Origin: an uncultured Chloroflexia bacterium
GTDB taxonomy: Bacteria; Chloroflexota; Anaerolineae; JAAYZQ01
Direction of reading: 5' to 3'
Length of the DNA stretch: 64,000 bases
Assembly: GCA_963700285.1 (NCBI GenBank)
Contig: CAVOXA010000001.1
Coordinates: 128,001-192,000, forward strand
The translations under genes and the position numbers were made by a program. The notes under the pieces are model-generated. The model did not search any database, was not told where the DNA came from, and was given only the letters and a program-made list of their open reading frames with translations. The first letter of the stretch is position 1. Each line of letters starts with the position of its first letter. Positions 24,631 through 29,242 of the stretch are shown here, piece after piece.

Positions 24631-24659
24631 TTGACAGATAAGAACATTTGTGCTATAAT
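24631..24659 (+). promoter_or_regulatory. Perfect sigma70 promoter with an embedded LexA-type (GAAC-N4-GTTC) box
   Basis: TTGACA(24631)-17 bp-TATAAT(24654); AGAAC-ATTT-GTGCT at 24641-24654, one mismatch. Confidence 0.75.
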
Positions 24660-24705
24660 GGGGTGAGAGTACTCACCCTCGCAAGACTGCGCGCAGGAGA
24701 CAACG

Positions 24706-26730
24706 ATGGCCAAAGCGTACGATACGACGGACATCCAGGTCCTCGATTACCCAGAGAACATCCAGCGCCGGCCGGGGATGTACGTCGGCGGCACAGGGCT
24801 GGATGCGCTGCACCACTTGGCCTACGAGCTGATCGACAATGCTGTTGACGAGGCCCTGGCTGGGTCCTGCACCGAGATTGATGTACAGATCCATGCCGAT
24901 GGGTCCATGACCGTGGCCGATGATGGCCGGGGCATCCCGACCGGGATGCACGCCGAAAAAGGTAGACCCACCCTGGAACTGGTCTTTACCGAGCTGCATG
25001 CAGGTGGCAAGTTCAAAGAGGGCAGCTATTCCACCAGTGGCGGCCTGCACGGCGTGGGCATCAAGGCAACCAACGCCCTATCGGAGTGGTTGGAAGTGCG
25101 GGTGCGCCGCAATGGTGTGATCTACTTCCAACGGCACGAGGGTGGCTTACCCGTTGTCCCCGTCCAGATCTTGGACCCGACAAGCGGCGAGGCGATTGTT
25201 GAGGTGGGGCAGAGGGATGAGGTCAAGGCCACAAAAGCCCACGCTGACAAGAGCTTGGGCACCGGCACCGAGATCAGCTTCAAGCCCAGCTCTCGCTTCA
25301 TGGACACTACTGATTTCGATTTTGACGCCATGGCCCGGCGGCTGCAGGTCATCGCCTTCCTACTGCCGGGCGTAACGGTCAAGTTTGTCGACAATCGCAA
25401 AAAAAGAGCACGTGAGAAAATCTTCCGCTACGACGGCGGTCTGGTGGAATATATCCACTGGCTCAATGAGGGTCGCAAGCCGATCCACCGCATTCCCATC
25501 GAAATCACTGGCGCGCAGAACAGGGTCACCGTCGACGTGGTCTTTCAATGGCACACCGGGGTAGACGACAGCGAGATCGTCAGCTTTGTCAATACCATTC
25601 CTACTCCCGATGGTGGTAAGCACGTGGCCGGCTTCAAGAGCGCCATCACCAAGGCCATCAACCAGTTTGCATCGGAAAAGAAGCTGGTCAAGGGCGAAGC
25701 CAATATCCGCGGCAGTGATACCCTGGCCGGTCTGACTGCCGTACTCAAGCTCTCCATGCACGACCCGCACTTTACCAGCCAGACCAAGACCCAGTTGGCC
25801 AGCGACCAGGTGCAGGGCATTGTCCACAGCATCGTCTACGAAGGTCTCCTGGAAAAACTCCGCAAACAGGTATCGCTGGGCCGGACCATCGTCCAGCAGG
25901 CGCAGGCTGCGGCCCAGGCGCGGGTGGCGGCCAGCAAGGCGCGCTCCCTGGTCATCCGGCGCAGCGTGCTCGACGCCGCCGATTCTGGATTGCCGGGCAA
26001 GCTGGCTGACGTGACCAAAGGTTCGCCGACGGAACAGACGGTGATCTATATCGTCGAGGGAGACAGTGCCGGCGGTTCGTGCAAGATGGCACGCGACCGG
26101 CGCTACCATGCCATCCTGCCCTTGCGGGGAAAGCCCCTGAACGTGGAAGGGGTCAAGCTGACCCGGCTGCTGAACAACAACGAGATCAAGGCCATCGTCG
26201 CCGCCGTCGGCGGCGGCATCGGCGCCGACTTTCAAGTGGACGACTTGCGCTACGGCGGTGTGGCCATCTTGGTGGACGCCGATGTGGATGGCGACCACAT
26301 CCGTACTTTGCTCTATACGCTGTTCTGGCGCTACATGCGACCCATGATCGAGGCTGGCCGGCTCTATGTGGCCGTGGCGCCCCTTTACCTCCTGCGTAAG
26401 GGAAAACAGGAGCGCTATGCCTACTCTGACCGGGAGCGGGACGGCATTCTCGAGGCATGGGGCAAGGACTCTGGACGTGGAGCCGTCACCATCCAGCGCT
26501 ACAAGGGTCTGGGCGAGATGAACCCGGGGCAATTGCGAGAGACGGTCTTTCGGGTGGAGGATAATGGCCCATTTAACGACAGCCTGCGCAGGGTGACGGT
26601 GGAGGATGTGCACCACGCCAACCAGCTTTTCGCCACCCTAATGGGCGGCTCTGCCAGCCTGCGCCGCACGTGGCTGTTGGAACGATGGCGCGAGGAAGAT
26701 CACGTCGAAAACGGAGACGAGCATGACTAG
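24706..26730 (+). CDS. Type IIA topoisomerase subunit B (GyrB/ParE-like, divergent)
   Basis: RRPGMYVG, ELIDNAVDE, GGLHGVG, VEGDSAGGS, PLRGK, DADVDGDHI, QRYKGLGEMN. Confidence 0.92.
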   Translation: MAKAYDTTDIQVLDYPENIQRRPGMYVGGTGLDALHHLAYELIDNAVDEALAGSCTEIDVQIHADGSMTVADDGRGIPTGMHAEKGRPTLELVFTELHAGGKFKEGSYSTSGGLHGVGIKATNALSEWLEVRVRRNGVIYFQRHEGGLPVVPVQILDPTSGEAIVEVGQRDEVKATKAHADKSLGTGTEISFKPSSRFMDTTDFDFDAMARRLQVIAFLLPGVTVKFVDNRKKRAREKIFRYDGGLVEYIHWLNEGRKPIHRIPIEITGAQNRVTVDVVFQWHTGVDDSEIVSFVNTIPTPDGGKHVAGFKSAITKAINQFASEKKLVKGEANIRGSDTLAGLTAVLKLSMHDPHFTSQTKTQLASDQVQGIVHSIVYEGLLEKLRKQVSLGRTIVQQAQAAAQARVAASKARSLVIRRSVLDAADSGLPGKLADVTKGSPTEQTVIYIVEGDSAGGSCKMARDRRYHAILPLRGKPLNVEGVKLTRLLNNNEIKAIVAAVGGGIGADFQVDDLRYGGVAILVDADVDGDHIRTLLYTLFWRYMRPMIEAGRLYVAVAPLYLLRKGKQERYAYSDRERDGILEAWGKDSGRGAVTIQRYKGLGEMNPGQLRETVFRVEDNGPFNDSLRRVTVEDVHHANQLFATLMGGSASLRRTWLLERWREEDHVENGDEHD

Positions 26731-26797
26731 TCCTTGCCCGTCAGAGCCCTCCTGGCCCTGACGGGAGCTGGGTTCAGCATCAATGAGGTGATAGAGA

Positions 26798-29242
26798 ATG
26801 TTAGCTGACACGCTTACCATTGAGACGGTTGCCCTGACGACGGACCTGGAGCAAGCCTACTTTCAATATGCGGTCGAGACCATCACCGACCGGGCGCTGC
26901 CCCGCGTCGAAGATGGACTCAAGCCGGTACAGCGCCGGATCCTGTATGCCATGTACGACATGGGCCTGCGCCATGACCGGCCCCACAAAAAGTCGGCTCG
27001 CATCGTGGGCGAGGCGATGGGCAAATACCATCCCCACGGCGACCAGTCGGTCTACATGGCTATGGTGCGCATGGCCCAGGATTTCGCTATGCGCCATCCC
27101 CTAGTCGATGGGCAGGGGAATTTTGGCAGCATTGATGGCGACAGCCCGGCGGCCATGCGCTACACGGAAGCCCGGCTGGCCGAGATCTCGGAGCACATGC
27201 TGCAGGACATTGACCAGGATACGGTCAATTTCGTGGACAACTTTGATGGTTCTCTACAGGAGCCCGTGATCCTACCGGCGGCGCTGCCCAACCTTCTGGT
27301 CAATGGAGCGACGGGCATCGCCGTGGGCATGGCCACCAACATCCCACCCCACAACCTGGGTGAGATCTGCGACGCCGTCGTCCATGTAGCGCAGCGCTGG
27401 AAGCAGCGGAACCAGATCACGGTCGACGAGCTGATGGAGATTGTGCCGGGTCCCGATTTTCCCACCGGGGGGGTGATCTACCGCTACCGGGACGATGGCT
27501 CGGGAGACCTGATGGACACGATCCGCAATGCCTACGAAGTAGGCCGAGGACGGATCGTGACGCAGGCACGGGTCGACCTGGAGGACATTGGCGGGGGCAA
27601 GACCAACATCATCATCACCGAGCTGCCCTACGCCGTACAAAAGTCCACTGTATTGGAGCGCATCGCCCGTGAGGTGCGCGACGGCCGGATTAGCGGCGTC
27701 ACCGACCTGCGCGACGAGTCGGATCACGAGGGTATGCGGGCGGTGATCGAGGTCAGCCGTGTGGCCGAGGCCCGCGATGTATTGGAGGAGGTTCTGTCTC
27801 GCAGCCAGTTGCGTGAGACTTTCGGGGTGAACGCGCTGGCTTTGGTCGCAGAACAGACGAACAGCGAGACCATTGTGCGCCCCCAGCGTCTTTCGTTGCG
27901 AGAGATGCTGGTTTATTTTGTCGAGCACCGGCTCAATGTGATCGTGCGTCGCAGCCGGCACGAGCTGGCAAAGCGGGAGGCGCGTCTGCACATCGTCCAG
28001 GGCCTGCTCAAAGCCCTGGATGTCATCGATGAGGTGATCGACACCATCCGGCGCAGCCGTACCGCTGAGACGGCAGAACAGAACCTCCGCAAGAAATTCC
28101 AATTCAGCCAGCTCCAGGCCCAGGCTATCCTGGCGATGCAATTGCGACGGCTAGCCGCGCTGGAGCGGCGCAAGCTGGCCGACGAGGAGAAGGAACTCAC
28201 GGCCCGCATCCGCTATCTCAAGGAGTTGCTCCGCTCAGAGGCGCGTCGTCTGCATGTGGTTGTCAATGAGACCCAAGAAATCAAAGAGCGTTTCGCCACA
28301 CCGCGCAAGACGATCATCCTGACCACTGATAAACCGGGTGATGCCATCGTGACTGAGGCTGACCTGGTCGCGCCTGAGGGCGCCCAGGTGATCGCCGTGA
28401 CGACGCAGGGCCTGCAGCGCAGCGACGCCAAGGGGTTCTCCTACCGGGTCAAGCCAGGGACAACCAGCCGGGCCGTCGAGGCCCACAGGTTGCACTTGCG
28501 TACCGAGCCTACTGACGCCATAGTGCTGGTCTCCAGCCAGGGCAATGCCTGGTGGGGCCAGGTAGGTCGCCTGCCCATGATGGCCAAATTTGAGGATCTA
28601 GGGCTGGCCAAGGGTGAAGAGGTCGTCGGATTGGGGGTGTTGTCCGATTCCTGTTACCTGATTGTTGGCACAAAAAAGGGACAGGTCAAGCGAGTGGCGG
28701 TGGATGACATCAAGCCCACCGCAGAAGCCACGTGGGCCACGATCATTGGTCTATCAGGGGACCAGGATGGCGTTCTCTTTGCTGGGCTTGGGGGTGACGA
28801 GGCTGAGGTGATGTTCTTCACCAGCGCGCGAGCCAACCGTTTCGCGTCCAATACGGTCACGCCTCAAGCCACTCCCTCGGCCAGGGGCGTAGCGGCCATC
28901 AAGGTGCGCTCAGGCGATCACTTACTGGGTGGGACAGTCGTAGCCGATCCTGCCGCCCAACTGGGCGTGGTTGTGGTCAGCAAGACCGGCTTTGTGAAGC
29001 GGGTGCCGCTAGGCGAATTTCCCGCGCAGGGCCGGGGCGGACAGGGGGTACTGGTGCTGAACCAAACCAAAGCAACCGGACCCGTTGTCGCCGTGGGGAC
29101 AGGACCTCTGGCTGGCTCGGTGGACCTGATTGCAACGGATGGCAAGCGGCAGCGCCTTGCAAAAGTGCCGGAAGAGAAACGGCCAAACCGTGGTGAGAAG
29201 CTGGTTGAGCTGGATGAAGTAGCTGAGGTCTGGATACTGTAG
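26798..29242 (+). CDS. Type IIA topoisomerase subunit A (GyrA/ParC-like; no clear first-blade GyrA-box)
   Basis: [14 protein letters not shown], catalytic [30 protein letters not shown]; beta-pinwheel CTD. Confidence 0.92.

Follow-up and report, generated by a model that had tools for sequence, protein, structure and literature searches.

The control of topoisomerase IV (Topo IV) genes by LexA is by itself already known, parE of Bacillus subtilis being one of the genes regulated in this way. LexA likewise controls parE-parC in Staphylococcus aureus, for which gyrase is described as not regulated (PMC11442139), and parE in Streptomyces venezuelae (PMC9380542), and its motif in Firmicutes and Actinobacteria is GAAC-N4-GTTC (PMC3323433). 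Here, we analyse a two-gene operon encoding a type IIA topoisomerase in a 64,000-nucleotide stretch (hereafter the window; positions 128,001 to 192,000 of contig CAVOXA010000001.1) of an uncultured member of the Anaerolineae (Chloroflexota), which a first-pass annotation had read as a damage-inducible, Topo IV-like accessory enzyme. With the S. aureus and S. venezuelae systems, as far as the cited papers describe them, this locus shares the B-A operon, a type IIA enzyme without GyrA-box, a GAAC-N4-GTTC-type operator and gyrase genes mostly devoid of a LexA box. In contrast to them, its enzyme appears to stem from an Anaerolineae gyrA duplicate and often has no gyrase partner, being the sole type II enzyme found.

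The GyrA-box is defined as Q(R/K)RGG(R/K)G in blade 1 of the GyrA C-terminal domain (CTD) (PMC9348778, PMC8216471), and its loss abolishes supercoiling while decatenation is kept (PMC8216471). According to the same review, from 2021, Aquifex is the only organism without a functional gyrase, and its box-less enzyme does not supercoil (PMC8216471). The sole type IIA topoisomerase that Aquifex aeolicus has (PMC8216471, PMC2647321) resembles the window enzyme in its gyrase-derived core, its missing GyrA-box and its status as sole type II enzyme, whereas in Anaerolineae this predicted state extends to whole families, reverse gyrase was not found in the 23 genomes searched and an SOS operator is predicted. 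The gyrase of Mycobacteria, as presented in PMC8216471, also bears QGRGG(K/Q)G in blade 5, and in many cases the cell has likewise no other type II enzyme, but it keeps the canonical blade-1 box and supercoils, while the window enzyme has lost this box. Whether enzymes resembling Topo IV had one origin or several is left undecided in a 2009 review (PMC2647321). Our search, which left most subscription journals outside, retrieved no literature that deals with type II topoisomerases of Anaerolineae or with their control by LexA, and the data sets behind the Aquifex paper or PMC9348778 may already show box-less Chloroflexota proteins.

We consider it probable that the operon encodes a type IIA enzyme without the blade-1 GyrA-box, likely relaxing and decatenating DNA without supercoiling it, likely repressed by LexA, originating from a gyrA duplicate and acting as the sole type II enzyme in several lineages. 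A wider proposal is held more tentatively, with a little less than even confidence: that DNA gyrase has been lost from whole Anaerolineae families devoid of reverse gyrase, leaving them unable to introduce negative supercoils into their chromosomes, and that many of them have, as sole type II enzyme, a relaxase/decatenase that evolved independently, is under SOS control, shed both its quinolone anchors and displaced the ancestral enzyme. What makes these observations significant is the pattern of displacement and the existence of lineages predicted to lack gyrase, not the LexA box itself. Anaerolineae would offer, within one class, a series leading from duplication to a Topo IV-like enzyme, from a B subunit shared by two A subunits, through an operon of its own, to the displacement of the native pair. 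Several lineages are predicted to run without negative supercoiling, the question of whether Topo IV-like enzymes arose repeatedly becomes testable and, if the proposal is true, the only type II topoisomerase of a cell sits under SOS control.

A type IIA topoisomerase without the blade-1 GyrA-box

The two genes, like all features given below on the forward strand of the window, encode a B subunit of 674 aa (24706..26730) and an A subunit of 814 aa (26798..29242), both complete type IIA subunits with full domain sets. The type IIA core is present: the B subunit consists of GHKL ATPase, transducer and TOPRIM domains with intact EGDSAGG, PLRGK and DADVDG motifs, and the A subunit carries the catalytic Tyr122 (27161..27163), which is preceded by Arg121 and invariant across 81 aligned sequences, together with a beta-pinwheel CTD without acidic tail. 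Both subunits fall below the curated cut-offs of gyrA, gyrB, parC and parE (for instance, TIGR01063 scores 750 for a cut-off of 877 and TIGR01059 694 for a cut-off of 882), and only the broad PRK05561 model was passed.

The canonical blade-1 GyrA-box is absent from the A subunit, as the first-pass annotation had noticed. In the blade-1 loop (28442..28477), the aligned segment has 44 residues compared with 50-51 in boxed GyrA, a deletion of 6-7 residues that removes the RGG(R/K)G core. The QGRGGQG motif late in the CTD (aa 744-750; 29027..29047) is the blade-5 copy, and its counterpart in the alignment is QGRGGKG, the late motif of a GyrA of mycobacterial type (PDB 8s7k); the blade-5 box of M. 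tuberculosis gyrase is described as serving decatenation (PMC8216471). Since the blade-1 box is missing, the enzyme likely relaxes and decatenates DNA without supercoiling, and the features of Topo IV seen in the A subunit are precisely the lack of a canonical GyrA-box and of an acidic C-terminal tail. The AlphaFold model of this subunit (mean pLDDT 83, pTM 0.62) is weak at residues 79-127 (pLDDT < 50) and has a confident CTD with six predicted repeats, by our reading of the strand list. Foldseek returns GyrA and ParC alike; therefore, the model does not discriminate between them.

Residues 83 and 87 of the A subunit anchor quinolones (PMC11019561). In the alignment, the window protein has Gln83 and Met87 (27044..27058) instead of Ser/Thr83 and Asp/Glu87, both anchoring residues thus being lost. 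The acidic residue 87 and Ser/Thr83 are both missing in 18 of the 27 operon-clade A subunits versus none of the 157 other Anaerolineae A subunits, the nine deeper-branching members of the operon clade keeping Asp87. Some operon A subunits are much longer (1274-1337 aa; L044 in G012, L045 in G009, and L082) and carry insertions, and intein Pfam domains are listed for the operon A protein of 1274 aa (P0118).

A probable LexA-type operator within the promoter

The sigma-70-type promoter (24631..24659) matches the consensus at 12 of 12 positions, with TTGACA at 24631-24636, a spacer of 17 nt, TATAAT at 24654-24659 and an extended -10 TG at 24651-24652. Its perfection had been pointed out before and is confirmed here. 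As the genome holds 119 such promoters, it was discarded as evidence in itself and the case rests on the operator. One-mismatch AGAAC-N4-GTTCT sites are not rare either, numbering 99 in the genome, but the combination is remarkable: a site scoring at least 12 is present in only three of the 119 perfect promoters. The sequence AGAACATTTGTGCT, at 24641-24654, which had been placed in the spacer, is not wholly inside it: the -10 hexamer begins with its final T. The LexA-type operator itself, AAGAACATTTGTGCTA (24640..24655), supported by its identity to a recA 16-mer and by conservation in orthologs, has a GAAC-N4-GTGC core at 24642-24653. Its right half overlaps the extended -10, and the mismatch of GTGC to GTTC is likely explained by this overlap with the TG.

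GAAC-N4-GTTC is also the LexA site in Chloroflexota. In this genome, lexA is present as a tandem pair and recA also in two copies, and boxes of this type are present in the promoters of both lexA genes. The promoter of recA2 bears a 16-mer identical to the window operator, at the same position between -35 and -10, while the recA1 promoter has no box. Each gene of the lexA pair (G000, C9:95060-96626) has two boxes; the recA genes, at C10:720698 and C10:1823347, are near-identical although only one is boxed, and the two-recA pattern is also seen in G012 and G017. In a scan with a LexA matrix made of six sites from lexA1, lexA2, recA2 and a recA-like gene, the window operator ranked 16 of 7,051,108 genome positions, a rank that is partly circular because the recA2 seed site is identical to it. 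Of the 21 other sites scoring at least 17.5, 20 were fetched, and 59 of 75 candidate downstream open reading frames (ORFs) were compared with Pfam. Eight of these 20 sites precede genes of repair or recombination, whose products are a DNA-binding protein of the LexA type, a RecA-like protein, two AAA_25 ATPases (presumably RadA-like), UvrA, RusA, an integrase or a DEAD helicase, and the genes downstream of the remaining 12 are unrelated or unannotated.

Orthologs were scanned over 300 bp upstream, omitting loci with less than 150 bp, which left 33 operon-clade loci (24 tree rows, two of them reassigned from a neighbouring group, and nine upstream regions of B genes). A site of at least 12 bits was found in 31 of the 33 and one of at least 16 in 29, compared with sites of at least 12 in 2/51 Anaerolineae gyrA genes keeping the GyrA-box, 0/18 gyrA-clade genes with a lost or degenerate box and 23/3873 long ORFs of this genome. 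The genomes compared are kin, and therefore these counts are not independent. The promoter geometry recurs in most orthologous operons, their operators mostly end on the TA of the -10 hexamer, and from one family to the next the GAAC half stays conserved in the same place. In genomes where no type II topoisomerase other than the operon was found (operon-only genomes), the same operator-in-promoter design occurs at lexA in 4/4. G012 and G017 show it at one of their two recA copies, while in G003 and G019 only one recA was found, which has no box. A full lexA lies above the model cut-off in four of the five operon-only genomes checked. Because the 16-mer is identical to the recA2 site and a matching site occurs in 31/33 orthologous loci, LexA control of the window operon is very likely, in support of the earlier suggestion of SOS control.

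Among the other, stand-alone box-less paralogs, 28 of 82 (with one duplicate pair among them) have a site of at least 12, and the idea of a class-wide rule whereby box-less A genes are LexA-controlled was dropped. Within 30 same-genome pairs, such a site favoured the paralog in four and gyrA in one, was found at both in one and at neither in 24. Side cases include G026, in which the A and B genes (L024 and L303) are split and both have strong LexA-type sites, scoring 21.4 and 20.0; its CTD is nearest to that of the operon clade and its B subunit groups with operon B, an arrangement that is possibly a pre-operon state. In L077 (G014) and L355 (G020), the native box-less A gene is directly preceded by the lexA pair.

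Regarding the mechanism, LexA bound between -35 and -10 would block RNA polymerase, while a half-imperfect site on a consensus promoter would allow a leaky, basal expression that could serve replication where the operon is alone. DNA damage would then lead to RecA-triggered cleavage of LexA and increased expression, and this SOS induction would raise relaxation and decatenation after damage.

Origin of the subunits

In the large FastTree reconstruction of the A subunit (224 rows), the 186 Anaerolineae-type rows form one clade (support 97), with the Firmicutes and proteobacterial ParC outside. Within it, a box-less paralog clade of 114 rows (99) holds the operon clade of 28 rows (100) and the second A gene of this genome. 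In a 34-row IQ-TREE reconstruction, the clades of the Anaerolineae (97/94) and of the operon (100/100) were kept without the paralog clade being resolved; the latter was resolved (100) in a full-length A tree of 27 rows. With the full-length A subunit, joining the operon clade to classical ParC was rejected by the approximately unbiased (AU) test (p=0.023). Two insertions point the same way: a 4-residue insertion is shared by 26/27 operon, 84/85 paralog and 68/70 Anaerolineae GyrA rows versus 2/30 outside rows, and a second one by 21/21 operon and 83/84 paralog rows versus 2/72 rows of the GyrA clade.

Since the trees and the two indels agree, the operon A subunit is probably, as judged from these sequences, the product of an Anaerolineae gyrA duplication that lost its box, and not of classical ParC. 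Descent from ParC was rejected because the subunit nests among Anaerolineae A subunits, shares both indels and scores below the parC models. The Topo IV-like, box-less character proposed previously is supported: the operon would work like an SOS-controlled Topo IV, without being a member of the ParC family by descent.

Most Chloroflexota outside the Anaerolineae have one A gene, boxed in all 18 main copies fetched, while the usual Anaerolineae layout comprises one gyrB and two A genes, one boxed and one box-less (L257-L296, L400, L402, L425), so that the B subunit would be shared between gyrase and a Topo IV-like enzyme. From such a state, the duplicate having lost its box would have become a Topo IV analogue of separate origin and acquired its own B subunit, the operon B forming its own long-stemmed clade. 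The operon would then have displaced the native split pair of gyrB and box-less A in several lineages, becoming their only type II enzyme. In some non-Anaerolineae Chloroflexota (L243 in G203, L254 in G202), a separate divergent B-A pair was observed, whose A subunit lies near Firmicutes ParC on long branches.

Type II topoisomerase content

The genome studied has exactly two A and two B genes. A second, canonical gyrAB was looked for, as the idea of an accessory enzyme beside a housekeeping gyrase would have it, and a second pair exists on C10, but its native A gene also lacks the GyrA-box, ruling out this pair as a canonical gyrase. The C10 A gene has a one-base frameshift (L337:7779), likely an assembly error since a related contig in run X6 lacks the extra base. 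Among 23 genomes of the family, ten have the operon type only, 11 the native split pair only and two have both, a count with gaps in G004 (no B match), G022 (no A match) and G010 (only a 40-residue A fragment). Four genomes from two other families are operon-only too, which brings to 14 the relatives in which no other type II topoisomerase was found. A boxed-GyrA CTD query returned only the two box-less types in 19 of the 23 family genomes, and no boxed GyrA was found in any of the 23, four of which have no assembled CTD.

Assembly gaps were rejected as the cause of the single-copy genomes, because contiguous empty syntenic sites were found in three of them. The genes flanking the native A gene here and in G002 are adjacent in G017 and G003, with gaps of about 370 and 140 bp, and the flanks of the native gyrB (as in G015 and G021) are adjacent in G012. 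In G006, G019 and G012, rearrangement makes the A-site neighbours uninformative, and the same holds for those of the B site in the four remaining genomes. Substitution by Topo VI or reverse gyrase was also dropped, as no Topo VI was above cut-off in 41 plus 5 genomes (its B subunit being searched in 23) and no reverse gyrase in the 23 family genomes; Topo IA is retained. Overall, the family appears, from its gene content, to have lost canonical gyrase altogether, and the lineages with the operon as sole type II enzyme likely live without gyrase, their cells presumably lacking negative supercoiling activity.

In other Anaerolineae families (L188-L200, L204, L206), the only A gene belongs to the gyrA clade and lost its blade-1 box separately. 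Two of these genomes, G084 (L188) and G140 (L189), are single contigs, 98% complete, with one A gene, one B gene and no Topo VI found.

Alternative explanations

Several observations weigh against this reading of a box-less, LexA-controlled, often solitary enzyme. The AU test with the N-terminal part of A does not reject ParC kinship (p=0.151), and operon B, although its best tree places it with Anaerolineae GyrB (98), can as well be joined to the single ParE reference (p=0.56). A degree of DNA wrapping could be allowed by the blade-1 motif peculiar to the operon clade and conserved in it, and by the blade-5 box that most of its members have. Besides the partial circularity of the matrix rank, the 12-bit cut-off is an arbitrary choice of ours and the GTGCTA half of the operator is partly promoter sequence. 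All genomes are of the metagenome-assembled type, with a completeness of 71-95% in the family. The features of the CTD lead to the most serious rival, a non-canonical gyrase still supercoiling by means of the conserved blade-1 motif (G-x-T-x-RAV-like) or the blade-5 box, which we nevertheless regard as unlikely. Gyrase is regarded as essential in nearly all bacteria (PMC8216471), the CTD is basic (pI 9.2) with its six modelled repeat units, Topo IA is kept and the NCBIfam gyrA score exceeds that of parC, both being below cut-off. However, the RGG(R/K)G core is deleted, and PMC8216471 assigns the mycobacterial blade-5 box to decatenation and describes the Aquifex enzyme, which has no box, as not supercoiling. 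Slightly less likely still is a main role in self-rescue from topoisomerase poisons, whereby poisoning would trigger SOS and so induce an enzyme predicted to be less drug-sensitive, an advantage that would have driven the displacement of the native pair. This idea draws on the anchors missing in 18/27 operon-clade A subunits versus 0/157 elsewhere in Anaerolineae, at the residues described in PMC11019561, but the deeper-branching 9/27 keep Asp87 and mostly also the LexA box, which implies that SOS control is older than the residue change, and neither mobile elements nor resistance genes were seen as its context in the window. As a secondary effect, self-rescue is compatible with the preferred explanation of an SOS-controlled relaxing and decatenating enzyme.

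A purely accessory, damage-only Topo IV beside a constitutive gyrase, close to what was first proposed, now seems improbable. It would suit this genome and its congener G001, where another B and another A gene are retained with no strong LexA box (10.5 and 3.1) and in which the operon may act as an inducible second enzyme, and also the eight operon-clade genomes outside the family with two A matches each (the partner was fetched for G024 only). Yet the second A subunit of this genome is box-less too, and the 14 operon-only genomes, three of them with empty native sites, already contradict it for those lineages. Finally, it is very improbable that LexA does not act at this site, which would then be promoter sequence or be bound by a different regulator. 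GTGCTA does overlap the extended -10, an element common in the genome, and repression of an essential sole enzyme would be odd; against this stand the GAAC half kept in place across families, the scarcity of such sites among perfect promoters and the identical design at lexA, recA and recA-like genes.

Other features of the locus

A ribosome-binding site, AGGAG (24695..24699), precedes the B gene. Two hairpins, at 24660-24679, just after the -10, and at 26737-26764, between the B and A genes, have z scores of -1.2 and -1.8, not beyond those of shuffled sequences. No sequencing run shared half of the words of the window, one RNA run reaching a share of 0.05. The DUF1786 gene downstream (29303-30523) has its own promoter-like site ending in GTGCTATACT, in which the GAAC half is missing. 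The window genes flanking the operon were found next to it in the same genus only, and the flanking genes vary between genera.

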